A stretch of 64,000 bases of DNA, from NCBI GenBank assembly GCA_016927685.1, contig JAFGMD010000021.1, positions 21,913-85,912 of the forward strand. The letters are read 5' to 3'. This document shows, piece after piece, positions 1 through 64,000 of this stretch. A program made the position numbers and the translations under genes. The stretch's first letter is position 1, and each line of letters starts with the position of its first letter. The notes beneath the pieces were generated by a model that was not told where the DNA came from, made no database searches, and saw nothing but the letters and a program-made list of their open reading frames with translations. This stretch comes from Candidatus Falkowbacteria bacterium. GTDB taxonomy: Bacteria; Patescibacteriota; Patescibacteriia; CAIXNZ01.

Positions 1-521
1 ACATTGGCGTTGGAATAGCTATTGCTTGCATTGGATTTGTACTGGGCGGCATATTTGGCGGATTGGGTATATTTAGTCTTGTTCTAAGCGGAATTTTAAT
101 AGCTTTTTTCGGTATTTTTATGCCTGCCAGGACAAAAGAGGGGGTATTAGCCAAAGAGCATATTTTAGGATTAAAAATGTATCTAAATGTTGCTGAGAAA
201 GCTAGGATTGAATTTCATAATGCACCAGCTAAAAATCCAGAAACATTTGAAAAATATTTGCCCTTTGCCATGGTTTTGGGCGTGGAAAAAGCATGGGCTA
301 AACAGTTTGAAGATATATATAATACCAAGCCTGACTGGTATAATGATCCATCAACTTCCAGTTTCAATTCCATGGCGCTTGTTAATAATTTAAATACTTT
401 TAGCGCTGAAGCGCGCTCCACTTTATCTTCTGCACCAGCTTCTGCTTCCAGCGGTTCTAGCGGCTTTGGCGGTGGCGGTTCTGGCGGAGGAGGCGGTGGG
501 GGTGGGGGAGGATCTTGGTAA
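1..521 (+). CDS. C-terminal part of a membrane protein with a Gly-rich tail (DUF2207-like); 5'-truncated by the window edge
   Basis: The reading frame is open from the window start (IGVGIAIACIGFVLGG...). Hydrophobic helices are followed by a poly-Gly/Ser C-terminus (GFGGGGSGGGGGGGGGGSW). The family assignment is from memory of DUF2207-type C-termini. Confidence 0.45.
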   Translation, partial: IGVGIAIACIGFVLGGIFGGLGIFSLVLSGILIAFFGIFMPARTKEGVLAKEHILGLKMYLNVAEKARIEFHNAPAKNPETFEKYLPFAMVLGVEKAWAKQFEDIYNTKPDWYNDPSTSSFNSMALVNNLNTFSAEARSTLSSAPASASSGSSGFGGGGSGGGGGGGGGGSW

Positions 522-569
522 ATTCTAAATACTAAATTCTAAATCCTAAAAAATAGGAATATTATTTTA

Positions 570-1571
570 ATGAACAAATTCTATACTCAATTTAACGATA
601 TCTTAAAAAATCAGCCTGCTTATAGAGTAAAACAGATTAAGCAGGCGATTTTTGTTGAACTCATTGATAATTGGGATAAAGCCATGACTTTACCTAAAGA
701 CCTTAGAATAGAATTGGCAAAAAAATTACCCCTGGAAATTAAGGCGCAAATTTTTGAATCAAAAGATGAGGATGCTGCCAAGGCTTTAATAACCTTAAGC
801 GATGGCCTAAAAGTTGAAACAGTGTTGATGAAACATAATCGCCGAAATACTGTTTGCGTTTCTTCGCAAGTCGGTTGTCCTTTGGGGTGTAAATTTTGCG
901 CCACAGGCGCCATGGGGTTTAAAAGAAATTTGGAAACTTGGGAAATAGTCAGCCAGGTTTTATTTTTTGCCAGAATTTTAAAAGCCCAAGGTGATAGGGT
1001 AGACAATATCGTTTTTATGGGCATGGGTGAGCCATTTTTAAATTATGATAATGTCATGGAGGCGATTAGAATTATTAATGATCCTCATGGCCTGTCCATT
1101 GGCATTCGTCATTTTTCCATTTCTACAATTGGTATAATCGAAGGTATTGAAAAGTTTGCTGATGAGAAAATGCAGGTTAATTTGGCCATTTCTTTACATG
1201 CGCCAGATGACAGGACTAGGATTGGCATAATTCCTTGCGGTAAAAAGTATACTATTCATAAAATTTTAGAAGCAGTTGATAATTATATTGCCAAAACTAA
1301 TCGTAAGGTAATGTTTGAATATTTGCTCATAAAAGATGTGAATGATTCAGATGAATTTGCTTTAAAATTAGCCAAATTAATGAAAAAACCACTTTATTTT
1401 GTGAACTTAATAACGTATAATAAAACTGGGGCCTATCAGCCACCCTCCACTGATAAGATAAAGCATTTTAAAGATATTTTAGAGAAAAACAGGGTATTTA
1501 CCACCTTAAGATACCGCTTTGGTGCTGATATTGAAGCCGCTTGTGGGCAATTAGCAGCTAAGAACAAATAA
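570..1571 (+). CDS. rlmN: 23S rRNA (adenine2503-C2)-methyltransferase, radical SAM (RlmN)
   Basis: Radical SAM CxxxCxxC motif (CPLGCKFCATG), a conserved RlmN N-terminus (YRVKQIKQAIF), and the C-terminal Cys (EAACGQ). Confidence 0.9.
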   Translation: MNKFYTQFNDILKNQPAYRVKQIKQAIFVELIDNWDKAMTLPKDLRIELAKKLPLEIKAQIFESKDEDAAKALITLSDGLKVETVLMKHNRRNTVCVSSQVGCPLGCKFCATGAMGFKRNLETWEIVSQVLFFARILKAQGDRVDNIVFMGMGEPFLNYDNVMEAIRIINDPHGLSIGIRHFSISTIGIIEGIEKFADEKMQVNLAISLHAPDDRTRIGIIPCGKKYTIHKILEAVDNYIAKTNRKVMFEYLLIKDVNDSDEFALKLAKLMKKPLYFVNLITYNKTGAYQPPSTDKIKHFKDILEKNRVFTTLRYRFGADIEAACGQLAAKNK

Positions 1572-1573
1572 AA

Positions 1574-2038
1574 ATGAAGTTAAATTACATCACAATTCCG
1601 ATAATTACTATTGCCGTTTCAGTATTAGGTAGTTTTTTAACTAGCGCTGGTATGGATTGGTATAAAACTTTAAAATTGCCATCTATAGCGCCTGGCGGAA
1701 ATATAATTGGCAGTGTTTGGACAGTTATTTTTATACTTTCAACTATTTCAGCATTGATTGTTTGGAATAACATTCCTAAAACAAATTTATTCTGGTGGAT
1801 TATTGGATTATTTATAGCAAATGCGATTTTGAATGTGCTATGGAGCTTTATTTTCTTTTATTCTCAAAGCATTGGACCCTCAATTATTGAAATGATAATT
1901 TTAGAACTTACAGTTTTGTGTCTATGCATTTTAATTTGGCCATTTTCCAAGATCGCTTCAATTTTACTTTGGCCATACGCGGCTTGGGTTATTTTTGCTA
2001 CATATCTGGCCTATAATATTTGGATTTTAAATAAATAG
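1574..2038 (+). CDS. tspO: TspO/MBR family tryptophan-rich sensory protein
   Basis: About 154 aa with 5 TM helices, W-rich motifs (DWYKTLKLPSIAPGG, WPYAAWVIFATYLAYNIW) typical of TspO. Confidence 0.7.
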   Translation: MKLNYITIPIITIAVSVLGSFLTSAGMDWYKTLKLPSIAPGGNIIGSVWTVIFILSTISALIVWNNIPKTNLFWWIIGLFIANAILNVLWSFIFFYSQSIGPSIIEMIILELTVLCLCILIWPFSKIASILLWPYAAWVIFATYLAYNIWILNK

Positions 2039-2076
2039 GTCTTTTGACCTAATATCTAATAATTAACGTTAAAAAC

Positions 2077-2283
2077 ATGAGAAGATTAAATGTCATGGAT
2101 TTAATTGCTTTTATTCTAGTGATCGTTGGCGCACTTAACTGGGGCTTGGTTGGTATATTCAACCTTAACCTTGTTACTGCAATTTTAGGCTCAATCCCTG
2201 TTTTAGTAACAATTGTTTATGTTTTAGTCGGATTGGCAGGCGTTTATTGCATTTATTTGCTTTTAAACGTTGGCAAAAAATAA
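2077..2283 (+). CDS. DUF378 family small membrane protein
   Basis: 68 aa with two TM helices. The LIAFILVIVGALNWGLVGIFNLNLV motif matches the DUF378 consensus (GxLNWGLVG). Confidence 0.6.
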   Translation: MRRLNVMDLIAFILVIVGALNWGLVGIFNLNLVTAILGSIPVLVTIVYVLVGLAGVYCIYLLLNVGKK

Positions 2284-2363
2284 GAATTTTTCAAAAACCC
2301 TCTTGCTTTTTGGCCAGAGGGTTTTGAATTGAATTAATGTTTGAATTATGGTAAATTAGGCAT

Positions 2364-4166
2364 ATGCTAAATTCACAAATTGAAGAAATAAAATCAAAAA
2401 TTGATATTGTTGATTTGATCTCCGAATACACTGCTTTAAAGCCAGCTGGAACTAATTGGAAAGCGCGCTGTCCGTTTCATAATGAAAGAACACCGTCTTT
2501 TATGGTTTCGCGAGATAAGCAAATTTGGCACTGTTTTGGTTGTGGCGAAGGCGGAGATATTTTTGAATTTGTGCAAAAAATAGAGGGTATGGAATTTTCT
2601 GAGGCTTTAAGGCATTTAGCCGAGAAGGCCGGAGTAAAATTAAAGAAAGTTGACCCTGCCATTGTTTCGCAAAAAACTAAATTATTAGATATTCTTAAAG
2701 TAGCCGCTGAATTTTTTCATTTGTCTTTATTAAAAACCCAAGAAGGCAAAATTGGTCGTGATTATATTGAAAAACGAAATTTATCTCAAAAAACAGTTTC
2801 TGATTTTAAAATTGGTTATGCGCCTGATTCTTGGGACAAGCTTTTAAATTTTTTAATTAAAAAGGGTTTTAAGCAAAACGAAATTTTACTTTCTGGCATG
2901 GTTATAAAGAACGAAAAGGGGCAATGTTATGACCGTTTTAGGTTAAGATTAATGTTTCCGATTTTTGATCAGCATGGTGCTGTTGTTGGTTTTACCGGCA
3001 GAATTTTAAATGAAGAAAAGCAGGATCAAGGCGGTAAATATGTAAATACGCCGCAAACAACGATATATAACAAGAGTTTGGTAATTTATGGTTTAGATAA
3101 AGCAAAAAATGAAATAAAGAAAAAAGATTTGGCAGTTATTGTTGAAGGCAATATGGATGTAGTCGCCTCTCATCAAGCTGGCATAACTAATGTAGTGGCT
3201 TCATCTGGGACTGCTTTAACGCAAGAACAACTTAAATTGTTAAAGCGCTATACAAATAATATTGCCTTATCATTTGATGCTGATTTGGCTGGTCAAGCTG
3301 CTGCAGAAAGAGGAATTGATGCAGCGTTGGCTTTGGGATTTAATATTAAAATTATTCAGTTACCTAAAGAAATAAATGGCAAATCCATAAAAGACCCCGA
3401 TGATTGCATAAAACAAGGTCAGGAATTTTGGCAAAAAGCCATAGATTCAGCAATTTCTATTATGGATTTTTATTTTGATAAAGTTTTTTTAAAATATAAC
3501 AAGGATAATCCAGAACAACGCAAGGAAATAGCCAATAAACTCTTTAAGCAAATAGCTAAATTGCCGGATTTAGTGGAGCGGGATTTTTATCTGACAAAAT
3601 TAGCTCAAAAACTGGATGTTCCTGAGAATATTTTAAGAGAGGCCTTTCATCCTTTTAATGACTCAAAGCAAAAAAATACTAATGAAGAAACTCTCTTTAA
3701 TAAAAAGAAAATTGATAGAGAAATAATGTTGGCGAGGCAATTAGTAGCCATAATTTTAAAATATCCCCAAAACCTTGATTATGTAATTAGTCATTTGGAG
3801 GTAGAAACATTGCCCGATTCGCAATTACAGCAAATTTACAGGGAAATTATTTTATATTATAATGATAAGAAGGAGTTTGATTATTCTCAATTTGAAAAAA
3901 TATTATCAGACAAGACCAAAGAATTACTCAACCCAACTTCTACCTTGTTGCTATTAGCTGATAAGGATTTTTTTGATTTTACAGATGATCAAATAGAAAG
4001 AGAATTAATTAATATTGTTTCGGCTTTAAAAAAAGATTATATTAATAAAAAATTAAAACAGGTGCAAATGCTGATTGCTCAGGCGGAAAAACAAAAGAAT
4101 AAACAGCAAATCGAAGAACTGGCCAAGGAATTTTCAATCTTAACTTCAAAATTAAACAACTTATAA
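2364..4166 (+). CDS. dnaG: DNA primase DnaG
   Basis: CHC2 zinc finger ([34 protein letters not shown]) and a TOPRIM region ([16 protein letters not shown]); the length is typical of DnaG. Confidence 0.9.
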
Positions 4167-8194: not shown

Positions 8195-9094
8195 CTAATT
8201 TATTTTCTCTTTTATCACTTCGCTTGCCTTGGGATAACTTGCATACATTTTATCATTTTCTTCCTTGCCATAAGTCATTGCTATAAGTTGCTTTACTCTT
8301 ATTTTAAACATTGCTTTTTGTTCTTCAGTTATTTCATTATTTGTCTGGTTAGACTGATTAAAATTATTTTGTTGAGAAACTAGAAATTTATTATTATCAA
8401 GCATTGCTGGCAAAAAACCAAATCTAACTAACAACTTATCAAGTTCATTTAAATGATTAGACAGTTTAGCAAGGGATATTTGTAAAAATTCATAACTTAA
8501 AACTAATGACTTGCTGGGCATTAAATCGCCTGCATTGGCTTTTTTAATTTTCTTTTTTAAATTGCCGATACCTTCTTCCATTGATAAAACAATACTTTCT
8601 GATTTTTGATATAATTTCACCCTTGCCGAAAAAATATCAAAATCTTTTAATACTCTGCCTATTTTAACTTCATCTCTTAGTCGCAATGCTATACCTTGAA
8701 CTTCAAGTTCTTGATTTTCCTTGCTCAACTTCTTTTTAAAATCATTTATACTAACAACGCTTGGTATAAGTTCTTTGGGTATATCTGGAAATTCTCTAAG
8801 CATATCTTCTAAAAAAAATGGGGCTGGAACGCTTAAGGTTATCAATGCTTTTATGGCAAACTCACGAAAACCTTTTTTGGTATTCATCAAATATCCAAGC
8901 TTCCCGCCATACTTTTTATACTTTATAGCAGTTTGAATATATTCTTTACCGACTGTATGTTTCTTTGGTTTAACATTAACTTGCTTATTCTCTTGCGGAT
9001 TTTTCTCTATTTGTAATTTTAATTTTGCCATAGTTGCTTTTTTTAGGTATTTTCTCTTTATTTCTCTATAATAAAGAAAGTTAATTATTATCAC
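8195..9094 (-). CDS. hypothetical protein (element cargo)
   Basis: 299-aa ORF; the likely true start is the internal MAKLKLQ. No recognised domain. Confidence 0.4.
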   Translation of the reverse strand: MIIINFLYYREIKRKYLKKATMAKLKLQIEKNPQENKQVNVKPKKHTVGKEYIQTAIKYKKYGGKLGYLMNTKKGFREFAIKALITLSVPAPFFLEDMLREFPDIPKELIPSVVSINDFKKKLSKENQELEVQGIALRLRDEVKIGRVLKDFDIFSARVKLYQKSESIVLSMEEGIGNLKKKIKKANAGDLMPSKSLVLSYEFLQISLAKLSNHLNELDKLLVRFGFLPAMLDNNKFLVSQQNNFNQSNQTNNEITEEQKAMFKIRVKQLIAMTYGKEENDKMYASYPKASEVIKEKIN

Positions 9095-9156
9095 TAAAGA
9101 AGTAATATATTAAGTATCAACACATTATAGGAATAGACTTTAAAGTTCTTTTATTT

Positions 9157-9174
9157 TGCTATATAGTATTATAA
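9157..9174. promoter_or_regulatory. perfect 18-bp palindrome in the promoter region of the 8195..9094 gene (candidate operator)
   Basis: atagtattataatactat reads identically on both strands. It sits in the AT-rich intergenic region upstream of a minus-strand gene. Confidence 0.3.
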
Positions 9175-9209
9175 TACTATTACTTTAGAATTCTATATCC
9201 ATTGCTAAA

Positions 9210-9527
9210 CTAATCCCTTTCGTTTATTGATTGGCTTATCAGATATTCAGTATGTTCAGTATTAAATTTTTCTAAAACTAACTTGCAAAATGAATTCCAC
9301 AGCTCCTTATCATCAGTCCAAAATATCTTTATCCATTTACCGCCCCCAGAACGATTAGCGGGCGGATATGCTACAAAGGGTTCTTTATTTTCAAATATTG
9401 ATTTTCTAATAGTGAAACCTCTGATTTCAAACTGCCCAATTATTAAAATCATTGTAGCTGGCATTTCTGGATTGTCAGTAAATTTGAATTTGAATTTTAA
9501 AGCATTTAAATCTATAGTCATAGTCAT
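9210..9527 (-). CDS. SpoVG-like protein
   Basis: 105 aa. The pattern ...IIGQFEIRGFTIRKS...EPFVAYPPANRSGGGKWIKIFWTDDKELWNSFCKLVLEKF resembles the SpoVG core (hDIRVIdg..GLFVAMPSrR...g.frDIahPI...R..I...VL). Confidence 0.4.
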   Translation of the reverse strand: MTMTIDLNALKFKFKFTDNPEMPATMILIIGQFEIRGFTIRKSIFENKEPFVAYPPANRSGGGKWIKIFWTDDKELWNSFCKLVLEKFNTEHTEYLISQSINERD

Positions 9528-9572
9528 TTATGTTAATAGCTTAAATAAATCGCTGTAATCGCCAATTTGCCC

Positions 9573-9800
9573 CTAATTTGGGCGGTCTTCAGAGGTGTTA
9601 GCAAAAAGCTCAAGATGTTTTAATATGCCCCTTTTATCGCTTTGGGAGTAATCGTCTTTAACTACCAGTCGATTAAACCAATGGCTGATTGTCTTTTTAG
9701 TAAAACCTCGACCCTTTATTGCCATCGCAAAGCAAAGATAAGAGCTGTAATAGGAATTTCTATTTTGGATTTTGGTAAATCTCCGTGCTAAAGATTTCAT
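9573..9800 (-). CDS. hypothetical small basic protein
   Basis: 75-aa ORF in the co-directional block. No domain recognised. Confidence 0.3.
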   Translation of the reverse strand: MKSLARRFTKIQNRNSYYSSYLCFAMAIKGRGFTKKTISHWFNRLVVKDDYSQSDKRGILKHLELFANTSEDRPN

Positions 9801-9834
9801 AATTTTAATGTTAATTATAATTATTTAAGGATTT

Positions 9835-10017
9835 TTAATTTTGTTTCATCTTCTCCCAAACTTCTTTAAATTCTGTTTCGGTCATCGGCTTGTAAATCAA
9901 TTTAAATAACTCAACGAGCTTTGCTCCCATATCATAGGCAACTTCACGGCTTATTTCCTTGCCGAAGTTTTTTTTATAGATATTCTGAAATTTTATTATT
10001 TGCTCATCGCTTAGCAT
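9835..10017 (-). CDS. hypothetical small protein
   Basis: 60-aa ORF, co-directional and tightly spaced. Confidence 0.3.
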   Translation of the reverse strand: MLSDEQIIKFQNIYKKNFGKEISREVAYDMGAKLVELFKLIYKPMTETEFKEVWEKMKQN

Positions 10018-10032
10018 AAGTAAGCATTTTAT

Positions 10033-10293
10033 TTATTCGCTATAAATCCTGTTTTTAAGCATTTTGATATTATCAAAAAGTGTGCGGGCATTAACTTTTA
10101 GGTTGTCTTGCCAGTAATTGTTTATGGCAAGGTCAATGCTTTCAGCACGCTTAAAAATAAACTGCACTTTTTTAGAATTGGTCTTGTCTAAACCAACCAA
10201 TTCATAATCAAGGGATACTAAGACAGAAGCCAATCCTAAATCAAAGGTTAAAAAAATTTCTGACGGCTGTAATTGGGAGCAATTTTTTGTCAT
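10033..10293 (-). CDS. DUF5659-like small protein (phage/plasmid-associated)
   Basis: 86 aa. The pattern FLTFDLGLASVLVSLDYELVGLD...KVQFIF...SIDLAINNYW...LKVNARTLFDNIKMLKNRIY matches my recollection of DUF5659. Confidence 0.35.
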   Translation of the reverse strand: MTKNCSQLQPSEIFLTFDLGLASVLVSLDYELVGLDKTNSKKVQFIFKRAESIDLAINNYWQDNLKVNARTLFDNIKMLKNRIYSE

Positions 10294-21309: not shown

Positions 21310-21426
21310 CAATGTCTGATGAAGAAGAGGGAGAAGAAATGGATGAAGAAACAGAAGAAGAGGGTGAGGAAGAAGAAGAGGGTGAGGAAGAAGAAGTTGA
21401 GGGTGATGACGAAGAAGAGGCCATGT
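21310..21426 (+). CDS. possible small highly acidic peptide (38 aa) encoded by purine-rich GAAGAAGAG repeats
   Basis: Manual translation gives MSDEEEGEEMDEETEEEGEEEEEGEEEEVEGDDEEEAM. The low-complexity sequence makes coding status uncertain. Confidence 0.2.
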
Positions 21427-21496: not shown

Positions 21497-22147
21497 TTGT
21501 TAAGCTTAATATTAAGTTTAATCTTATTTTTAAAAAATATGCAAAAAATTCTTAAAATTATATATATTATAATCGGCTCCGTTATTGTGGTCGCTATTTT
21601 AATAATGTCAGGTTTGCAAATAAATAAAATTATTTTTGACAAACAACTTAATCAGGCGAAAGAGCAAGTTAAAAATTATAATGCATATAAGTTTGGCGCG
21701 GGAGAGTATAATAAATTAAAAAAGAGCGAAAAAAATGAAGTATATTATTATGCAGCTGATGGCAAAAGATATGTCTTTCCGGATACAAATACTTATCAAT
21801 CGTGGTTTGGCCCAATATCAATAGAAGATCTTAATACTTATGATTTATTGAAATTATATGAAACTCCCCTGGGTGGGAATGTAACGTGCAGACCAGGCAC
21901 CTTACTAAAAACCATTACAGACCCAAATACTTATATTGTTATTGGAAATGGTCATATCAAAGCTGTTGATAATAAGATTTTAGATCAAGTATTTGATAAA
22001 AATTGGCAAAAAAATGTTATTGATATTGCTAATTATTATTTTACAAATTATAAAGTGGATAAACCTATAGAAAATTTATCTGAATTTCCAGAAATACCCT
22101 TAAGTATAACGATAGATCAAGATAAAGATCTAAAAAATGATAAATAA
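21497..22147 (+). CDS. hypothetical membrane-anchored protein with repeat motifs related to the 54179..55579 protein
   Basis: N-terminal TM helix. The GKRYVFPDTNTYQSWFG and NTYIVIGNGHIKAVDNKIL modules resemble the repeats in the putative cell-wall hydrolase. Confidence 0.35.
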   Translation: MLSLILSLILFLKNMQKILKIIYIIIGSVIVVAILIMSGLQINKIIFDKQLNQAKEQVKNYNAYKFGAGEYNKLKKSEKNEVYYYAADGKRYVFPDTNTYQSWFGPISIEDLNTYDLLKLYETPLGGNVTCRPGTLLKTITDPNTYIVIGNGHIKAVDNKILDQVFDKNWQKNVIDIANYYFTNYKVDKPIENLSEFPEIPLSITIDQDKDLKNDK

Positions 22148-25714: not shown

Positions 25715-25781
25715 ATTTGACAAACCTCAATTTCAAATGTTAAATTAGGGTATTCGTACTTTGAAAATAAGGAGGTAATAA

Positions 25782-27179
25782 ATGAAATCATATAATGACA
25801 CCGCTAAACAGCTATCCAGAGAAAAAGAACTCGATTTTATATCACAACACCTGCGAAATGAAATTTTAGCACCTCATAACATTAAAGTTGTGTGTCTCGA
25901 ATCCGAAGAACTTCTCGAGATAATTAATGTATTTGATAAATTGGGAGTGCCGAGAAAAAACATAAGGGTTATCGAAAGAAATGAAGAAATAGCAAAAAGA
26001 ATTTATGAAAAAGGTAATGGCGTATGGGTTTACAATTATCTTGATCATCATTTTTTTGCAACCACCCGCGAACAATTCGATATAATCAGTCTTGATTATA
26101 CTGGCAAAAAAAATCAAAGGATTATAGAGAGCATACGATTGATCACTGGGAGAAAATTGTTGAAGAAAAAAGGAATATTAATTATTAACACCTTCTCGGC
26201 TCGCGAAAATCGAGAAAAATTATTCTTAATGCCAGTTGCAAATATGATTGATATTTCTTATTCGAGAACTAACGACAAAAATGTAATTTCGGAAAATGAG
26301 TGTCTAGAAAATGCCCTGAAAGAAATTGAAACATTTAATGAAGGCGGAGCTTCGCTTGAAAGTTCTAGAGATTCTTTTACGGATTTCATAATCGCCAACA
26401 TATTTGACTCTGGATCGACTAAATTCACGGAATTCAATCGCCTTTATCCCCAAGTCAAGGACACTGATGAACTCATAAAGCAAGAATTAGAGAAAATGGA
26501 ATTTTCTGATGCTACGCAGAAAGAAAATGCTCGTTTACTCCTATCAGCCAATCTTCATCGTCGAGAAATGTGCCTTCATCTGGGAAGACTTTTCGGAAAT
26601 TCTGACTATAGAGTAACATGCTTCTTGTATTATGGCCTCAGAGCTATTTTTGAGATGAAATATAAAATTGATGCAATTGAACGCTATAAATATATCAGTT
26701 CAAACGGAGCACCTATGGAATTTGATCTTTATGCATTCAGTGATATCGAAAATCAATTTTCTAGTCTTCGTTCATATTTTTATCTTCAGGATTCAGCGTT
26801 TGGGGGAAAAATTATGCGAGTCAAGAGTGATAAAATCCGCAATTCAAAAAAATGGCAGGAGATAGCGACAAATGTTTACAATGCAAACTTCCTAATAAGG
26901 CTCCCGCCAATCCCTGAAAGGGTTTTTCTGGGTTCATCTGCCAAAAATGGAAAGGAGGATGACGAAATGGCAAGGCCAAAAAAAGTTGAAAAACAACAGG
27001 AAGACTCATCAATCTTGGCGAATATCAAACCCGGTGACACAATAACCAAGGAGCAAGCGATCGAGCTGCTCGATGCTGGCTGGACCGCCAAGCAAATAGC
27101 CAAAATTTTTAAAGGCTTCACTAAAATGCAAATCGCAGCTTTTAAAGCTCATATTACCATGGGGACATATCAAGAGTGA
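25782..27179 (+). CDS. hypothetical protein (Rossmann-like N-terminal region, possible C-terminal HTH)
   Basis: 465-aa ORF with an RBS ataaggaggtaataa; flanked by near-identical terminators. Confidence 0.4.
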   Translation: MKSYNDTAKQLSREKELDFISQHLRNEILAPHNIKVVCLESEELLEIINVFDKLGVPRKNIRVIERNEEIAKRIYEKGNGVWVYNYLDHHFFATTREQFDIISLDYTGKKNQRIIESIRLITGRKLLKKKGILIINTFSARENREKLFLMPVANMIDISYSRTNDKNVISENECLENALKEIETFNEGGASLESSRDSFTDFIIANIFDSGSTKFTEFNRLYPQVKDTDELIKQELEKMEFSDATQKENARLLLSANLHRREMCLHLGRLFGNSDYRVTCFLYYGLRAIFEMKYKIDAIERYKYISSNGAPMEFDLYAFSDIENQFSSLRSYFYLQDSAFGGKIMRVKSDKIRNSKKWQEIATNVYNANFLIRLPPIPERVFLGSSAKNGKEDDEMARPKKVEKQQEDSSILANIKPGDTITKEQAIELLDAGWTAKQIAKIFKGFTKMQIAAFKAHITMGTYQE

Positions 27180-54178: not shown

Positions 54179-55579
54179 TTAATTATTTGTCGCAATTGTT
54201 GCGGTTGGAATTAATAAGTCCAAATTTTCACCCTGCGGATGTAAGCTCAAGACTTTATCAGTCACGTCAAATATATCTGTCCAGCTATAACCTAAGGATA
54301 TAAAAGTATTTTCATTAGCAACCCAGCGACGCTGACCATTAGAAATTACATATACCTTGGGATCGCTAGGACTTTTTATTAAAATACCGTCACGAATTTT
54401 TAAGCCGTTAGCTGCTGTAACATATTTATCAAGTTCTTCGGTAGTGACTTTAATAGTGCTGTATTTTTTATTGTAATTAATATTTAAAACATCTTTTGAC
54501 CAAATAGGATATTTTATGCCATCTTCAACATAAAATACACCCCCCGTTTTTGAATCCTGAAGCAGAGCGCCCTGTGGATATAAGCTAGTAAGTGTTATTT
54601 TTCTACCCTCCAAATAATAGCCAAGCTCTTCATCAGTAACATCTATGATCTCATCTGGATTATAACCTATAGCGCGAAAAACTTCATCTGATTCAATTTC
54701 CTTTTTTTCATTGCCGACAATTAAATATATTTTATTGGCAGGGGAGCGAAGTAATGAAAAATTAGCATACTTAATGGGATAGCCCTCTTCATATCTTAAT
54801 AAATCATTTTTAGAAATTTCAATAATTTTGGCATTGGCATAACGGCTGGTTAGGGCTAAATTAGACCAGAATAATCTTCGTTTGCCATTGGCTATTAAAT
54901 ATATTTTAGAATCGCCTGTTTGTTTAACGATTGTACCATCAGGGAAAATTTTAGCAAACCATCGATTCCAAATATTCCAAAAATTAAAATTACCATGCAG
55001 ATGTGGCGTATAATTATATAAATTTGCTGTTGATTGATTATAAGGAACTATTGTCTGATTATCAACTATACTGGATTTGCCTGGTAGAAAATTAAAGTCA
55101 GAAGCATGATCATAATAATATCTTATTCTCCAAGTACCGCGGTCAACTTGCGTGCCAAAACCCTTAAACATGGCAACTTGGGGGTCATCAATAGAACAAG
55201 AATCGCAAACTGCATAACCCATAGCCCAATCAATATTTTTTTGCGATGGAGTCGGATTTGTAATCAAGCTCTGTTCCTTTTGAAGTGTTGCTAAAATCCA
55301 TTTGGGATTTATTTTATATGTCTGGGCAGCATTAAAAATTATTTCAGCCGCTAATTTTTGAACACCATAATTATCAGGAGTTATAAGGCTTTTTAAAACT
55401 CCATTTTGGTTATTTAAAAATTCTGCAATAGCAGATAAATTCATGGACTGAAAATCAGTCAAATCTCCATCAGAAATAATATCATTTGGATCAAATTCAA
55501 AAGCCAAAAGCTGGCCAAATGGCGCTAAAATAAAACTTATAACAACAATAAAAATAATAATTTTATGATAAATTTTCAT
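54179..55579 (-). CDS. secreted putative peptidoglycan hydrolase (glucosaminidase-like N-terminal region) with 3-4 C-terminal repeats of about 45 aa
   Basis: A signal peptide. INPKWILATLQKEQSLI resembles the glucosaminidase motif. The repeats are KIYLIANGKRRLFWS..., KIYLIVGNEKKEIES..., KVYVISNGQRRWVAN.... Confidence 0.4.
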   Translation of the reverse strand: MKIYHKIIIFIVVISFILAPFGQLLAFEFDPNDIISDGDLTDFQSMNLSAIAEFLNNQNGVLKSLITPDNYGVQKLAAEIIFNAAQTYKINPKWILATLQKEQSLITNPTPSQKNIDWAMGYAVCDSCSIDDPQVAMFKGFGTQVDRGTWRIRYYYDHASDFNFLPGKSSIVDNQTIVPYNQSTANLYNYTPHLHGNFNFWNIWNRWFAKIFPDGTIVKQTGDSKIYLIANGKRRLFWSNLALTSRYANAKIIEISKNDLLRYEEGYPIKYANFSLLRSPANKIYLIVGNEKKEIESDEVFRAIGYNPDEIIDVTDEELGYYLEGRKITLTSLYPQGALLQDSKTGGVFYVEDGIKYPIWSKDVLNINYNKKYSTIKVTTEELDKYVTAANGLKIRDGILIKSPSDPKVYVISNGQRRWVANENTFISLGYSWTDIFDVTDKVLSLHPQGENLDLLIPTATIATNN

Positions 55580-55712
55580 ATATTATATTTTATCATAAAT
55601 TCATGCTTCTTTCAATAAATAAAAAGATCGCCTGCATAATTACGGACCTAACCCTCTAACCCCGGATTCAGCGAAAGCTGATACCGGGGTCTTTTTCTAT
55701 CCAAAAAATATT

Positions 55713-55742
55713 TTGACATATTCTTTTACTATTGCTAATATA
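55713..55742 (+). promoter_or_regulatory. sigma-70-like promoter (TTGACA -N18- TAATAT) driving the candidate ncRNA
   Basis: ttgaca at 55713-55718 and taatat at 55737-55742, with no ORF downstream. Confidence 0.45.
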
Positions 55743-55749
55743 TTTTTAC

Positions 55750-56113
55750 GAGGGAATATGTCTGTGAAAAATAGCTCGGTTTGCTAGCGACAAAGAGCGA
55801 AAAGGCCATCCAATTGAAATACGCATTAACACTATGTGGCAGAAATGTCAGGTGGATGCGTTCCTCATGAAAAAATTGTGGGGTGGTGCCATACCCTGCG
55901 TACTGCACTGAGCGAGGTGCGCGGGAGCAAACCTGCCCATGATGCCGAAACCCCCATGTTTCTCGTTTTGCGGGACCGCATGCCAACGGGAACCTAGGGC
56001 GGCTGTCGCCACGTGCCTAGTTATGGGACCGGAGAAAAAAGCTCTGTTTTTACAGACTACCTCAAGTCGTGCCCCGGCGAGTTATGTACAAACTTGCCGG
56101 GGCCTTTTTTATT
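55750..56113 (+). ncRNA. candidate structured ncRNA of about 360 nt (unclassified), GC-rich, bounded by a promoter and a strong intrinsic terminator
   Basis: No ORF longer than 25 codons on the plus strand. The only track ORF (55735..55986 minus) has an implausible composition. The terminator is ccccggcgag-TTATGTACAAA-cttgccgggg + ccttttttatt (56071-56113). No tmRNA, RNase P or SRP motifs were found. Confidence 0.3.
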
Positions 56114-56202
56114 GACAAAAAGAGTTATATTTGTTAAGCTGCCAATAATAACAGTGAGCTGACCTGGCATATAGGATGCTATGGGAACGGCTCGCCCCTC
56201 CA

Positions 56203-56245
56203 AGCCCCGCTTTCACTGATCATGATTGCGGGGCATTTTTTATTT
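56203..56245 (+). terminator. second plus-strand intrinsic terminator, ending a possible ~100-nt transcript that starts after the ttgaca at 56112
   Basis: ccccgc-TTTCACTGATCATGATT-gcgggg + cattttttattt. Confidence 0.4.
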
Positions 56246-56290
56246 AAAAATTAAAAAAGAAACGGATTTACCGCTTCTTTTTTGTTTTAT

Positions 56291-58912
56291 TTATTTAAAA
56301 ACTACTTTATCTTTTATAACATCCACTCTAACCTTTTGCCCTTCTTTTATCTTGCCTTCAATAATTTGCAAGGCTAAATCATCAAGAATTTGATTTTGAA
56401 TCACGCGCTTGAGCGGGCGAGCGCCAAATTGGGGATCAAAACCCTTATTAGCCAAATATTCTTTAAGCGCTTCTGTAAAATCAACTTTAATTTTTTTATC
56501 CAATAATCTTTTTCTGACAATTTCCAACTGCAATTCAATAATTTTTTCGATTTCTTTTTTTGCCAGAGGATGAAAAATAATTATTTCATCCAAACGATTA
56601 ATAAATTCCGGCTTGAAATGCGACTTTAAAGCTTCATTAACTCGTTCTTTCATTTTCTCCTCATCAACTTTTTCATTTGTTCTGACTGACTTATCTTCAA
56701 AACCAAGAGTAACTTCTTTTAAAAGCTGATTGCCTAAATTAGAAGTCATAATTATAATAGCATTTTTAAAATTTACTATTCGGCCCTTGGCATCAGTCAA
56801 ACGGCCATCATCAAGTAACTGCAACAGAATATTAAAAACCTCTGGATGAGCTTTTTCAATTTCATCAAATAAAACCACAGAATATGGACGTCTACGAATC
56901 TGTTCAGTTAATTGTCCGCCTTCATCATAGCCAATATAACCGGGAGGGGAGCCAATAAACTTGGAAATAGAATGTTTCTCCATATATTCTGACATATCCA
57001 CGCGAATCATGGCATCTTCATCACTAAACATAAATTCTGCCAAGGCCTTGGCTAATTCAGTTTTGCCTACGCCGGTTGGGCCCAAGAAGATAAATGAGCC
57101 AATTGGCTTATTTTCCTCGCCAACGCCTGCGCGTGAGCGTCTAATAGCGTTTGCCACGGCTGAAATGGCCTCTTCCTGGCCAATTACGCGCTTTTTTAAC
57201 TCATCTTCAGCGTGAGCAAGCTTAGCCATTTCTGATTGCAGCATTTTGGAAACAGGAATGCCTGTCCAGCGAGAAACAACTGCCGCTATATCTTCCTCAG
57301 TTACTTCTTCTTTTAATATTTTATTTTCTTTTTGAATGAGGGCTAATTTTTTTTCTAAAGACTTGATGTCTTTTTCCAAAGCCGGAATCGTGCCATAGCG
57401 AATTTCTGCAACTTTTTGCAATTCTGATTTTCTTTCCAAAATATCTGCTTCTTGTTTTAGAGAATCAATTTTCTTTTTAGCCTCGCGGATTTTTGTAATA
57501 ATTTCCTTTTCATTTTTCCAGTGTAATTCCAATTGGTTTGATTTTTCTTTCAAATCATTCAGTTCCTTATTTAGATTTTTCAAATTTTCTTTGGCCTCTT
57601 TTTCTGATTCATTTTTTAGCGCGGCTTTTTCGATTTCCAACTGTTTAATTTTTCTTTTCATTTTGTCCAAATCTTCGGGCATAGAATCAATTTCCATGCG
57701 CAAGGCCGATGTTGCTTCGTCAATCAAATCAACTGCCTTATCAGGCAAAAAACGATCGGTGATATAGCGCTGTGAAAATTCAGCTGCTGCAGTAATTGCT
57801 GAATCAGTAATTCTCACACCGTGATGAACTTCATATTTTTCTTTAATGCCACGCAAAATGGCAATCGTATCTTCAATTGACGGCTCTAAAACCATAACCG
57901 GTTGAAATCTGCGTTCTAGGGCCGGATCTTTTTCAATATGTTTTTGATATTCTTTCAGGGTTGTTGCGCCAATGGCATGCAATTTACCGCGAGCCAAAGC
58001 AGGCTTTAACATATTAGAAGCATCCATCGAGCCTTCGATAGCGCCGGCGCCCACTACAGTATGCAATTCATCTATAAATAAAATAATCTGGCCATTGGAA
58101 TTTTCTACTTCTTTTAAAACAGCTTTTAATCTATCTTCAAATTCACCACGAAATTTTGTACCTGCTATCAAAGATCCCAAATCCAAAGCAATCACTTCTT
58201 TATTTTTTAAAGTTTCCGGCACATCACCGGCTACAATTCTTTGTGCCAGGCCTTCGGCAATAGCAGTTTTGCCAACACCTGCTTCGCCGATTAAAACCGG
58301 GTTATTTTTTGTCCTGCGAGAAAGTACTTGCATAACACGTCTAATTTCAGAATCACGGCCAATAACGGGGTCTAATTTTTCCTGTCTGGCCATCTCAGTT
58401 AAATTTTGCGCGTATTTTTCTAAAACCTGAAATTTTGATTCTGGCTCGGGATCAGTTATTCTGGTTGAACCGCGTAATTGCGCTAAGAGCTTTAAAACCT
58501 CGTCATATTTAATTTCAAAACTTTCCAAAAGCGTTTTAACTTTGGATTTAGTATTGAGCATGGAGAGAAATAAATGCTCTGTAGAAATATATTCATCCTT
58601 GAGATCTTTAGCTTCTTTTTCACTTCCAGCTAAAATGCGCGCCAAATCTTCAGTTAAAAACATCTGGGTTAAATTAACTTCAACCTTGCTTTTAGGCATT
58701 GATTCAATGGCACGCGAAATTTCTTTTTTTAAATTTGCCGCTTCTACTTCCAGCTTTTTTATAATAGTCAAAACCAAGCTGTCTTCTTGAAGTAATAGAG
58801 CAGCGAGTAAATGCAGAGCATCAACTTGCTGATTATGATTGTCAACAGCTATTTCTTGCGCGTGGCGCAAAGCCTCCTGCGATTTTGTAGTAAATTTGTT
58901 TATATTAAACAT
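56291..58912 (-). CDS. clpB: ATP-dependent chaperone ClpB
   Basis: Two AAA+ modules ([15 protein letters not shown]; [15 protein letters not shown]), a long middle coiled-coil domain, and 873 aa. Confidence 0.9.
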
Positions 58913-61222: not shown

Positions 61223-61321
61223 GCCTTTATTATAACATAAATTGTTTGACTTTTGTGGTAATTTTTGTTAATCTTCTGAATTAGAAAGATGAACCTTAAA
61301 AATTTAAAAAAGGAGGAAATA

Positions 61322-62707
61322 ATGAAGCTATTTGAAATTCTGAAAAATATCAAACATTATATCAGAGTCAAAGAGCCACAACATCGCCTAAGAAAAGGTC
61401 AGCACAACATTTTCATGTCTTTATATGAATTTTTGAAAAAGGGCATGACAATGGGTTATCTTATGCTGCCTAGCGGTGTCGGCAAAACCAATATTGCTAT
61501 TGAATTAGCAATAGCCGGTGACTTTAAAAAGGTATTATTTTTAGTGCCAACTGTCACGCTCGTTGATCAAACCAAGGAGCGATTCAGGAAATTTTCAAGT
61601 TTCACGGTTGATGTATTTACTGGGGCTCGCAAAAATATGTCCGAACAAATTACTGTTGCCACTTATCAATCGATACAAAGGCGGCATTTGCTGCCAGAGA
61701 AATTTGACCTTGTCATCTTTGATGAGGTGCATGAAGCTTTAAGTCCAGGCCGCCAAAACATCAGAAAACATTTTGGGCCAGAGACTATTCAAATCGGTTT
61801 AACTGCCTCTGATACTTATAACGAAACAAAGCAAGTTTCAAGTTATTTTCCGCTTATTGCTAAAATGACAATTGAAGAAGCGATTAAGCTTGGTATGCTT
61901 TGTCATGTTCAAAATTGGCTTGCGCAAACAAATATTGATATTTCGAAAATAACCAGACGTAGAGGTGACTATGATGTAAGGGAGCAGAAGCGCTATATTG
62001 ATGTATCTCGACGCAATAAGGCAGCGCTTGATATTTATAAGCGCTTCTTAAACGGTCAGACATGTTTAATAACATGTATAAATGTTAATCATGCTATAAA
62101 AGTTGCTCGGATATTTCAACGCTCTGGCATACCGAGTAAGGCAGTCTGGGGATCAACCCAAAAACATCTATTATCAAGAGCGGATTTAAGACAGCGATTG
62201 AGCGATTTTAAAACGGGTAAAATCAAAGTATTGACCACAGTCGATCTCGTTGATAAGGGGTTTGATAACACTCTTATCACTGCTTTGATTAATTTGCGTA
62301 TAACCAGTTCTGTTGTTAAGGCAACCCAGCGCGGAGGACGAGTTCTGCGACTTTTTAGTGAGGATGACAGAATACAGCCAATCGCCCAAAAAATGCTAAA
62401 AAAATTTCATGTCAAACTTGCTACTGTCGTTGATTTTCTTGATGAGTGTAAAAATCACACTTTCAGGCCAGTTCTTTTCAGTGATATTTTGGCACAAACC
62501 TACCGTTTACCAACGGAAATAGAACGTTCTATCAGTAATGGAACGCGAAAGGGAGAAGTTGATCTGTGGCCATCAGGTGGCCCAATCAAGATTAAATTAA
62601 TCACAAACGTAACTCAAATAGCCAAAATTACATCTAAATTAACCACTTATGTGAATTTACCAGTATCCGATGAGAGGGAAATTTTTTTCCTCCCAGTAAA
62701 ACGTTAA
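61322..62707 (+). CDS. SF2 helicase (DEAD/DEAH-box, ResIII-like N-terminal domain + helicase C domain)
   Basis: Motif I LPSGVGKT, motif II FDEVHE, motif III TAS, motif VI QRGGRVLR. The likely start is ATG 61322 (RBS aggagg), and an intrinsic terminator follows at 62717-62747. Confidence 0.65.
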   Translation: MKLFEILKNIKHYIRVKEPQHRLRKGQHNIFMSLYEFLKKGMTMGYLMLPSGVGKTNIAIELAIAGDFKKVLFLVPTVTLVDQTKERFRKFSSFTVDVFTGARKNMSEQITVATYQSIQRRHLLPEKFDLVIFDEVHEALSPGRQNIRKHFGPETIQIGLTASDTYNETKQVSSYFPLIAKMTIEEAIKLGMLCHVQNWLAQTNIDISKITRRRGDYDVREQKRYIDVSRRNKAALDIYKRFLNGQTCLITCINVNHAIKVARIFQRSGIPSKAVWGSTQKHLLSRADLRQRLSDFKTGKIKVLTTVDLVDKGFDNTLITALINLRITSSVVKATQRGGRVLRLFSEDDRIQPIAQKMLKKFHVKLATVVDFLDECKNHTFRPVLFSDILAQTYRLPTEIERSISNGTRKGEVDLWPSGGPIKIKLITNVTQIAKITSKLTTYVNLPVSDEREIFFLPVKR

Positions 62708-62817
62708 TTATTTTTAAAACCCGACAATATTATTGCCGGGTTTTTTATTGACTTTTTTTATTATTAATGTTAATCTTCATTGTTGAACTTTGACAAAATA
62801 ATAGAAAGGAGGCAGAA

Positions 62818-64000
62818 ATGAATCTTAATGAATTAGTAAAAAAATACGGCCTCCTTCAAGATGAAGAGGGGCGGTATTATGTGATCGATGAAGGCATTAA
62901 AAAAGAACCATACTGTCCTATTAAATTATTAACTAAAGTTCTAGGGCTGAGTATCAGCGCAATAAAAAAAAGAATTTTAAACTTAACTCCGTTCGCTGGT
63001 AGAATTTACAAGGGACGCGCTACAAATTTTTTTAATCTTAATGACGTTAAGAAACTATGCTCTGATTTATCGGAAAATAGTGACCTGCTATTAGTGAATG
63101 AAGGTGATTGGATATTGAAAGGTGGCAAAAAATATGCATCTATCCGCGTGATATCAAAGAAAATAAGATTATCGCAAACAGCAATAAAATCGCGCATTAA
63201 GAACTTAGAACCGGTTAAAAGCAAAAAACGTGGACATATCATAAATATTTACAGACTTGATCAAGTTAGGCAGGCCTGTTCAGATCTCCTCGATAGAAAT
63301 CTGCTGATAGTAAATAATAATGGTTGGGCAATTAAAAATGGACAGAAATATGCCACCGCCCTTACTATTGCTCAAAAATTAAAAATATCTGACGCTACTG
63401 TAAGAAAATATGCAGAAAATATGCCTAAAGTCAGGGGAAGAGATAAATGTGGACGAGTTGCAGATCTTTTCAATTTTGAAAAAATAAAAGCTGCTTGTGA
63501 TAACTTAATTACTTGTGAGCTTTTAGCCGATAATGACGGCTGGGCTGAAAAAGATGGACAAAAATATGCTCCTATTAGTGTTATTGCTAAAGAATTAGAC
63601 CTTTCTCATGATACAATGAAAAAATATATAAAGAGATTAACTCCTCTTCATGGCCGTCTCCCTAGAAAAATGGTTACTGATTTTTATAACTTTGAGGAGT
63701 CTAAAAAGGCCTGCTCGGATTTTATTAATGAAGACATTCTATTTCTGGACAAAAAAGGCTGGGCAATTAAAAACGGACAGAAATATGCTTCTATAAAAGC
63801 AATTGCAAAGGAATTGGGTCTATCTCATAGTGCAATAGCATTACGTATAAAAAGTTTAACACCTACTAGGGGTATAAATTTAAAGGGTAGGCTTGTGAAA
63901 GTATTCAACTTTAATCAAGTCGAAAATTCTTGTGCCGATCTTCTCGATGCAAACCTGCTAATTACTGATAAACATGGCTGGGCTGAAAAAGATGGACAAA
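62818..64000 (+). CDS. tandem-repeat protein (at least 5 diverged ~72-aa repeats, each with an HTH-like module), 3'-truncated by the window edge
   Basis: RBS aaaggagg + ATG 62818. It is absent from the ORF track because no stop codon is reached. Manual translation shows in-frame repeats with period 213-216 nt: ...GW(A/E)IKNGQKYA.I..IAKEL.LSH..I..RIK.L.P..G......F.NF..V...C.DLL..NLL.... Confidence 0.6.
   Translation, partial: MNLNELVKKYGLLQDEEGRYYVIDEGIKKEPYCPIKLLTKVLGLSISAIKKRILNLTPFAGRIYKGRATNFFNLNDVKKLCSDLSENSDLLLVNEGDWILKGGKKYASIRVISKKIRLSQTAIKSRIKNLEPVKSKKRGHIINIYRLDQVRQACSDLLDRNLLIVNNNGWAIKNGQKYATALTIAQKLKISDATVRKYAENMPKVRGRDKCGRVADLFNFEKIKAACDNLITCELLADNDGWAEKDGQKYAPISVIAKELDLSHDTMKKYIKRLTPLHGRLPRKMVTDFYNFEESKKACSDFINEDILFLDKKGWAIKNGQKYASIKAIAKELGLSHSAIALRIKSLTPTRGINLKGRLVKVFNFNQVENSCADLLDANLLITDKHGWAEKDGQ

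Follow-up and report, generated by a model that had tools for sequence, protein, structure and literature searches.

BldC and the excisionase-type winged helices Xis, TorI, and RdfS are single-domain proteins of 50-70 amino acids (aa) that form non-covalent oligomers; BldC and RdfS assemble head-to-tail on DNA (PMC5859096, PMC11963761). Here we describe a gene of Candidatus Falkowbacteria whose product carries modules of a similar predicted fold within one chain (2-13 modules in its family; hereafter, the array) and that lies directly downstream of a gene for a superfamily 2 (SF2) helicase. Both genes are located at the end of the analyzed 64,000-nt stretch of contig JAFGMD010000021.1 (contig positions 21,913-85,912; hereafter, the window, to which all coordinates refer). 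In addition to the covalent linkage of its modules, the array differs from BldC, Xis, TorI, and RdfS in several features: (i) an N-terminal hairpin in each unit, (ii) a nearly invariant cysteine, (iii) a Lys-rich tail, and (iv) a helicase partner. It has no detectable sequence membership in their class, and its binding to DNA is a prediction. The pSK1 Par and RacA proteins also use a MerR-like winged helix, which binds centromere or chromosome-anchoring sites, but they combine a single DNA-binding domain with a coiled coil and, unlike the array, have neither repeats nor a helicase partner. Cbp1, a CRISPR repeat-binding protein of Sulfolobus, resembles the array in having several helix-turn-helix (HTH) modules per chain that are thought to read repeated DNA; however, this archaeal protein has three imperfect repeats of a different HTH type and no helicase partner, and the match of the array to the Cbp1 model of NCBIfam is weak (E-value 0.003, 17.5 bits versus a cut-off of 140).

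Among solved or curated proteins, XPB/Rad25 (TFIIH; archaeal XPB-Bax1) and RadD are the nearest to the helicase core. XPB is a duplex translocase held by partner proteins, as we propose for the helicase of this locus, and its retention in TFIIH is a precedent for an anchored motor. In contrast to XPB, the helicase described here has no N-terminal damage-recognition domain, and its partner is a winged-helix array rather than Bax1 or TFIIH. Type I restriction enzymes, like the proposed pair, combine a ResIII-type SF2 motor with DNA contact from a separate variable subunit, and their HsdR motor, anchored by HsdS/HsdM, pumps DNA into loops; the present pair, however, has no nuclease, methyltransferase, or HsdS-type recognition domains and resides in a housekeeping setting. 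DbpA/YxiN follow the same logic: their SF2 core is held on its substrate by an attached nucleic-acid-binding module, the C-terminal domain, which tethers the enzyme to 23S rRNA. There, a DEAD-box core is joined to a single RNA recognition motif domain acting on rRNA, whereas here a DExH/ResIII core is combined with an array of DNA-type winged helices. The helicase and the array are both of known kinds; what appears to be new is the long covalent array, its obligate-looking pairing or fusion with the helicase, and the swappable repeats behind a common head. In Pfam, NCBIfam, PHROGs, PADLOC, and the literature searched, we found no description of covalent arrays of up to 13 MerR/Xis-like winged helices, nor of the pairing or fusion of an array with a dedicated SF2 helicase subfamily or of a swappable array behind a shared head.

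The array gene starts from the ATG at 62818 on the forward strand and stays in frame without a stop codon for 394 codons, to base 63999. Such a run is not expected by chance, since the GC content of the window is only ~33%. A public protein record (P0001, annotated as 'hypothetical protein JW977_03060 [Candidatus Falkowbacteria bacterium]', from a contig of 107,389 bp) is 100% identical to the window frame over all 394 aa. It has 600 aa, comprising eight units of 72-73 aa and a Lys-rich tail (...ACANVKKKKNK), and contains no frameshift. Thus, the gene stops ~620 nt past the window, its full length being taken from this record alone. The initial annotation of the window had reported an unterminated frame with at least five repeats of ~72 aa and had named downstream frameshifts or stops as a possible sign of decay. 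The frame is open merely because the window ends, five full units lie inside it and eight in P0001, and the full-length protein reveals no decay; the array gene is real. Its omission from the list of open reading frames (ORFs), also noticed in the initial annotation, is explained by the fact that the list drops ORFs running off the end of the source. Over the array gene, the list shows solely an antisense 78-aa ORF (63006..63242, reverse strand), which is spurious, as had been claimed, being wholly inside the conserved forward-strand gene. The array protein is basic, with an isoelectric point of about 9.7 (range 9.4-10).

According to an alignment of nine proteins and the comparison of orthologues, residues 1-96 (62818..63105) include a conserved N-terminal head (MNLNELVKKYGLLQDEEGRYY...) and winged-helix unit 1. 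The repeat boundaries at residues 97, 169, 241, 314, and 387, together with the AlphaFold2 (AF2) models described below, delineate unit 2 (residues 97-168; 63106..63321), unit 3 (169-240; 63322..63537), unit 4 (241-313; 63538..63756), and unit 5 (314-386; 63757..63975). The translated frame thus comprises five complete units plus the first eight residues of the sixth (63976..64000), and, judging from P0001, units 6-8 and the Lys-rich tail occupy the ~620 nt beyond the window. All these features are on the forward strand. The consensus of the unit is GWAxKxGQKYAxIxxIAKxLxLSxxxIxxRIKxLxPxxGxxxxGxxxxxFNFxxVxxxCxDLLxxxLLIxDxxx, and the units in P0001 share 25-59% pairwise identity. At the DNA level, the copies are spaced by 216, 216, 219, and 219 nt and are merely 60-76% identical over the best 51-nt piece. 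The 216-219-nt period was not detected on DNA by Tandem Repeats Finder because the copies are too diverged, and the units were therefore defined at the protein level. This divergence implies that the repeat expansion is not recent, in agreement with the initial annotation.

The same annotation had seen an HTH-like core in each repeat and had suggested predicting the structure of a single unit; the unit is, more exactly, predicted to be a winged helix. Summed over the repeats, five Pfam HTH families score above their cut-offs: HTH_24 (52.2 bits, cut-off 21.9), HTH_50 (46.8, cut-off 27), HTH_11 (45.3, cut-off 25), AsnC-type HTH (45.0, cut-off 27), and HTH_36 (43.9, cut-off 25). One repeat alone gives only marginal HTH matches (17-18 bits, E-value about 3e-3). 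The AF2 model of a single extended unit (unit 5, with an alignment of 55 units) has a predicted local distance difference test score (pLDDT) of 93.6 and a predicted template modeling score (pTM) of 0.77. For the full-length protein, modeled with the nine-protein alignment, a pLDDT of 86 with a pTM of 0.38 implies that the modules are confident while their mutual orientation is undefined. In both models, DSSP assigned to every unit the order beta-hairpin, helix, helix, beta-hairpin, helix (E-E-H-H-E-E-H); every modeled unit thus has the MerR/excisionase topology of strand, helix, turn, recognition helix, beta-hairpin wing, and helix.

Structural comparison of the single unit using Foldseek ranked the P1 ParA N-terminus, XPA, and DdrC, as well as many MerR regulators, the Pukovnik Xis, TorI, RdfS, GlnR/TnrA, BldC, and small terminase, none with an E-value below 0.1, whereas the full-length model retrieved nothing but spurious low-probability matches to CBS-domain repeat proteins. 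In a profile search against PDB sequences, the unit aligns to ArsR/TrmB-like winged helices across the HTH, the wing, and the following helix. In this alignment, the post-wing helix (..VKxxCxDLL) is equivalent to helix 1 of the winged helix that comes next; therefore, a helix of this kind (MNLNELVKKYGLL) opens the array protein, and an additional one closes it ahead of the Lys tail. The sequence membership in the MerR class is absent, as the 25 best of the 37 Pfam matches of the window protein include neither MerR nor HTH_17; a distant family member, P0020, matches HTH_17 at 35.3 bits. The coiled-coil or effector domain of MerR regulators is also lacking, and the chain consists of repeats end to end. 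The unit is thus confidently predicted to be a winged helix. It has one more strand at the N-terminus and is assigned to the MerR/excisionase class, to which its resemblance in fold is modest. The unit matches no known non-DNA-binding domain; such a match would, according to the initial annotation, have refuted its proposal.

An exhaustive profile search of 1.84 billion representatives identified 218 clusters (defined at 50% identity) at E-values up to 1e-30 and 568 at up to 1e-3; a word-indexed search had given nine clusters only. Unit-profile matches in the members have domain E-values from 1e-14 to 1e-31. The members are from about 200 to 1967 aa long, and the best 153 representatives have 2-13 units each, mostly 5-8, about half of them with a Lys/Arg-rich tail. 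Named members belong to Falkowbacteria, Buchananbacteria, Parcubacteria, and the 'Patescibacteria group', and the loci with family genes vary in GC content from 33% to 62%. The record of one locus (L003, CAZHFK010000008.1) is titled 'uncultured Gammaproteobacteria bacterium', but is probably mis-binned or mislabelled, since its gene content and helicase-array module match the Patescibacteria loci. A separate 'MIERYAT' branch, whose arrays begin at strand 2 of a unit, is represented by locus L017, where three array genes (2-3593) are chained with overlapping stop and start codons (ATGA), suggesting translational coupling; in the window branch, each gene instead has its own promoter and terminator. 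The helix and strand that the 'MIERYAT' arrays lack might be contributed by the tail of their helicase.

Among the 640 units of the 153 proteins, the best-kept columns are the unit-opening Gly, the Tyr-Gly/Ala-Thr ahead of helix 1, the Gly-Lys/Arg of the wing (about 90% of units) with the following Phe-Tyr, the Cys of the last helix (88%), and the Arg of the recognition helix (73%); the first positions of the recognition helix are variable. The array protein is predicted to bind DNA.

The upstream helicase gene (61322..62707, forward strand) encodes 461 aa ending with ...NLPVSDEREIFFLPVKR, as described by Pfam, NCBIfam, PDB sequence search, orthologues, and alignment. This length is that of the NCBI record P0156, and the longer start form of 472 aa has no exact protein record; the exact 461-aa form was also found on a 5.6-kb contig that ends inside the array gene. 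The protein matches ResIII (91.2 bits, cut-off 22.5, 9e-26) and Helicase_C (35.8 bits, cut-off 23.5, 1e-8), and also DEAD, in Pfam. The motifs PSGVGKT, DEVH, LTAS, and QRGGRVLR are recognized in the alignment and place it among ResIII-type SF2 enzymes, with a post-core motif FRPVLFSDIL that follows the subfamily pattern FRPxLxxD(I/L)L. The initial annotation was correct in calling it an SF2 helicase but not in the label 'DEAH-type', since motif II reads DEVH and the enzyme is thus DExH. The nearest solved relative is archaeal XPBII/Rad25, aligned over the N-terminal lobe only (1.7e-16).

Several assignments to known enzymes were considered and rejected. XPB/Rad25 reaches 46.5 bits in NCBIfam against a cut-off of 610; there are ~45 residues before motif I, and the position of RED reads TASDTYNE. 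RadD (YejH) reaches 62.7 bits against 720, and in place of the SSB-binding domain of RadD the C-terminal region is subfamily-specific. The models of DEAD-box RNA helicases (RhlE, DbpA, CshA, CsdA) score 14-23 bits against cut-offs of 520-990, with DEVH as motif II. For type I/III restriction enzymes, the motor core alone matches (EcoAI R subunit, 52 versus 550 bits; partial PADLOC REase_I), and domain searches and gene neighborhoods revealed neither a nuclease domain in the pair nor HsdM or HsdS nearby. A known anti-phage system of PADLOC-DB 2.0 was likewise not recovered: the helicase has only partial core matches (mREase_IV, PbeA, HamB), and the array only short HTH pieces, with no stretch passing alone. 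As none of the curated models for RadD, XPB, the type I R subunit, and DEAD-box enzymes comes near its cut-off, the helicase forms a separate subfamily. Its orthologues are 51-84% identical and thus far better conserved than the arrays (33-46%).

The initial annotation had called the partnership of the two genes suggestive but unproven and had pointed to its recurrence in related genomes as a check. The link is now strongly supported by comparative sequence data of three kinds: conserved adjacency, natural fusions, and homology at the junction. Wherever the sequence extends far enough upstream, array genes are adjoined by a helicase orthologue. The orthologue immediately precedes one to three array genes in all of these loci but L006, where two further array paralogues are found upstream of the helicase. 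The pair recurs in three different neighborhoods: (i) in the window, L002, and L014, genes for ClpB, PRPP synthase, and a radical-SAM protein are upstream and those for a ThpR-like protein and GluRS are downstream, (ii) in L003, L005, L006, and L007, unrelated genes are upstream and trigger factor is downstream, and (iii) in L008-L010, L012, and L013, tRNA_SAD is upstream and L10 and L7/L12 are downstream.

At least 15 of the 153 best family representatives match the window helicase in their N-terminal 400-500 residues and are thus helicase-array fusions, which come from other uncultured bacteria; several more have similar N-termini. P0032, P0037, P0039, and P0054 contain ResIII and Helicase_C followed by the array in Pfam searches, with the same units and Lys tails; P0054 aligns to the window helicase over 364 residues at 26% identity (E-value 3e-17), including FRPxLxxD(I/L)L. 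The neighbors of fused genes are RF, a sigma factor, TilS, RsmG, and S20 in one case and RNase J and Dus in another. The junction itself is recognizable in split proteins. Helicases encoded separately end with a helix and NLPVA(N/D)xxG(I/V)xFLPV, which aligns with ELPQA(D/N)xxGFIxL of the fused proteins, where it runs straight on into GERYGT... of unit 1. A hidden Markov model (HMM) of the unit in the junction register finds this tail at the extreme C-terminus of helicases, weakly (E-values 0.016-0.2) but at a constant position, while a unit HMM in the hairpin-first register found nothing in helicases.

On the array side, of the 24 columns that are invariant in the nine-protein alignment, 13 fall within residues 1-81, and unit 1 is the best-conserved unit between orthologues. 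In L013, a 566-aa protein (8517-10217) encoded beside the helicase orthologue has the array head and the first winged helix followed by seven DUF4379 treble-clef zinc fingers (E-value 2e-116), and an ordinary array gene follows; judging from these domain matches, the type of repeat is swapped behind a common head. More distant members of the helicase subfamily (P0176, P0177, P0178, and P0180; 715-786 aa) have an extra N-terminal region of ~110 aa and other C-terminal tandem repeats of ~55-65 aa, e.g. 'LSFEELKEAVKKAG...W.GWEKF' and 'APEGW.T....YRKTNPDWFK.Y', with no Pfam match.

The helicase and array genes are alike in their upstream regions, each being preceded by a promoter-like site with TTGACT, a 17-nt spacer, and TGnTAATCT (an extended -10 box in the former), and by an AGGAGG ribosome-binding site. 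The promoter-like sites are at 61246..61274 for the helicase gene and at 62748..62776 for the array gene, both on the forward strand. A generic consensus promoter scan did not list either site, and both are proposed from cross-locus conservation: TTGAC(A/T) with a TAA-type -10 box occurs before every array gene examined, and the layout of the helicase site recurs ahead of orthologues in other loci. The ribosome-binding site of the array gene is at 62807-62812 (forward strand). Between the two genes, the intrinsic terminator of the helicase gene that had been noticed initially is evident as a hairpin at 62716-62744 with a T-run (62716..62750, forward strand; -11.6 kcal/mol, z = -4.0), and an equivalent hairpin is found ahead of array genes in other loci.

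A pattern search further revealed a leader motif common to the two genes, GAACCTTAAAAA at 61291..61302, 31 nt upstream of the helicase ATG, and GAACTTTGACAA at 62785..62796, 33 nt upstream of the array ATG (both forward strand). The pattern GAACYTTRAMAA, derived from these two instances, has no other exact match in the 64-kb window. In other loci, its exact matches precede helicase or array genes, typically at a distance of 29-33 nt from the ATG, and the fused genes of GC-richer organisms lack it. The spacing is fixed to the start codon and not to the -10 box, which hints at an mRNA-leader element. No Rfam family was found in the helicase-array region. A similar leader, GTACTTTGAAAA, is located 26 nt before the ATG of a gene at 25756-27179 (forward strand), which forms its own terminator-promoter unit and encodes a 465-aa protein with a C-terminal HTH-like stretch and no Pfam match; this gene is possibly co-regulated with the helicase and array genes.

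The interpretation that we prefer, with a probability of roughly 55%, is a tethered motor, in which a helicase or translocase is anchored to DNA by interchangeable multivalent arrays. The two genes would encode one machine composed of (i) a ResIII/XPB-like SF2 ATPase with a DExH motif, which most likely acts as a DNA translocase or helicase, and (ii) a strongly basic partner with eight covalently strung MerR/excisionase-type winged helices and a Lys-rich tail. The array would lie along duplex DNA, each unit contacting it via the recognition helix with its conserved Arg and the basic Gly-Lys wing, and would by analogy be a covalent version of the head-to-tail filaments of single-domain BldC, Xis, and RdfS. 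The conserved head is proposed to dock on the helicase, probably on its C-terminal tail, a role played by the peptide bond in the fused relatives, and in this way the array would tether or target the motor. ATP-driven translocation against such an anchor might then remodel, loop, or locally unwind DNA or a nucleoprotein. Several paralogous arrays, and even the zinc-finger array with the same head, may serve one helicase as interchangeable adaptors. Given the chromosomal setting among housekeeping genes, the lack of nuclease and toxin domains, and the generic nature of the PADLOC matches, we favor a role in DNA maintenance or chromosome organization over one in defense.

Some observations weigh against the tethered motor. 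No tandem or periodic DNA repeat that could be the target of the array was found in the 64-kb window, and the docking of the head on the helicase is proposed from conservation alone. A terminator divides the two genes into separate transcription units, and the similarity of the helicase tail to the repeat junction is short (~13 aa, with HMM E-values of 0.016-0.2). The sequence of the helicase core would fit DNA or RNA substrates alike. Finally, array paralogues outnumber the helicase, and thus arrays may also act alone.

The last point leads to the alternative that survives best, although we consider it clearly less probable than the tethered motor: the array could act on its own, as an abundant nucleoid-associated or architectural protein or as a global regulator, with the helicase as a mere conserved neighbor and no complex between them. 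Every array gene is equipped with a consensus-like promoter, a strong ribosome-binding site, and a terminator of its own, one helicase may be accompanied by as many as four array paralogues, and the proteins are basic with Lys-rich tails. The internal units are little conserved by position between orthologues, which suggests generic rather than site-specific binding, and the arrays of L017 are chained with no helicase in the stretch examined, which ends before any helicase. A mere neighbor, however, would not be expected to occur in fusion with the array (at least 15 of 153 representatives), to remain adjacent through three changes of neighborhood, to carry a tail homologous to the fusion junction, or to have the same leader motif.

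A bolder form of the tethered motor, which we regard as improbable, is a programmable DNA motor: one SF2 translocase would take interchangeable readers (4-13 winged helices or treble-clef zinc fingers) via the common head, each module would read a few base pairs, and the array would form a long composite address. Base pairs would be chosen through the variable positions of the recognition helix, as in TALE and zinc-finger arrays, and the motor would be delivered to that address.

An anti-phage, anti-plasmid, or restriction-like module, with the helicase as a motor and fast-evolving swappable arrays as sensors or specificity subunits, is also unlikely. Its appeal comes from the PADLOC helicase-core matches to type IV restriction, PbeA, Hachiman HamB, and type I HsdR, from a match to the phage helicase phrog_16 at 7e-52, and from the behavior of the arrays, which diverge much faster than the helicase (33-46% versus 51-84% identity), have expanded into paralogues, and have been swapped in type. 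The matches, however, concern the generic SF2 core, an effector domain such as a nuclease or toxin is absent, as is any system-level PADLOC match, and the pair has stable synteny among housekeeping genes, with no integrase, transposase, or other hallmark of an island.

We give just as little credence to an RNA-directed role, such as ribosome biogenesis by a helicase with an RNA-anchoring repeat array in the manner of DbpA/YxiN. The neighbors are often translation-related (trigger factor, L10, L7/L12, GluRS, tRNA_SAD, 2'-5' RNA ligase), but they carry little weight since translation genes abound in the genomes of these bacteria. The helicase is also matched by Pfam DEAD, yet its motif II is DEVH, not DEAD, and it scores best with enzymes that act on DNA (ResIII, XPB/Rad25, RadD, type I R subunit). 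RNA binding is known for some winged helices; the structural neighbors of the unit, however, are DNA binders. Least probable is a remnant of a prophage or plasmid replication module with a phage-type helicase and an HTH initiator or antirepressor-like protein: the PHROG matches to phage helicases, DnaD-like loaders, replication initiators, and small terminase HTH regions, and the faint Pfam matches to P22_AR_N and NUMOD1, are for the array short and HTH-only with no stretch passing alone, no further phage genes are nearby, and the pair is syntenic across genera beside core genes.

Two other regions of the window deserve mention. Between the gene at 54179..55579 (reverse strand) and ClpB (56291..58912, reverse strand), ~600 nt at 55700-56290 (forward strand) contain no credible ORF and have a GC content of 0.42-0.46 versus about 0.33 nearby. 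A TTGACA-type promoter at ~55718 is followed by a GC-rich stretch of ~370 nt and a strong terminator at ~56075-56112 (z = -4.65 for the RNA fold), and next come a second promoter and a separately terminated unit of ~100 nt. The region matches no Rfam family, and its start is partly conserved in the syntenic locus L002; it is a candidate for an unannotated structured RNA. At 21321-21420, just upstream of the ORF 21497..22147, there is an imperfect tandem repeat of the GAAGAAGAGGGT type with periods of 12-39 nt and up to 6.6 copies, whose translation, if it occurs, would give an acidic, Glu-rich stretch.

Patescibacteria (the candidate phyla radiation) represent a large share of bacterial diversity and have tiny genomes rich in unassigned genes. 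For a family of at least 218 clusters labelled 'hypothetical protein', the present analysis provides an architecture, a helicase partner, a likely docking head, and a shared leader motif, and an anonymous ORF thereby becomes a testable two-component system. Modular arrays of this kind might be of interest as DNA-binding scaffolds, and the programmable motor, if true, would define a new class of natural arrays for modular DNA recognition that are coupled to an ATPase. A covalent chain of the winged-helix type that otherwise forms non-covalent filaments would be an unusual route to a long DNA footprint, and its coupling to a motor suggests a hitherto undescribed way to organize or remodel DNA in Patescibacteria.

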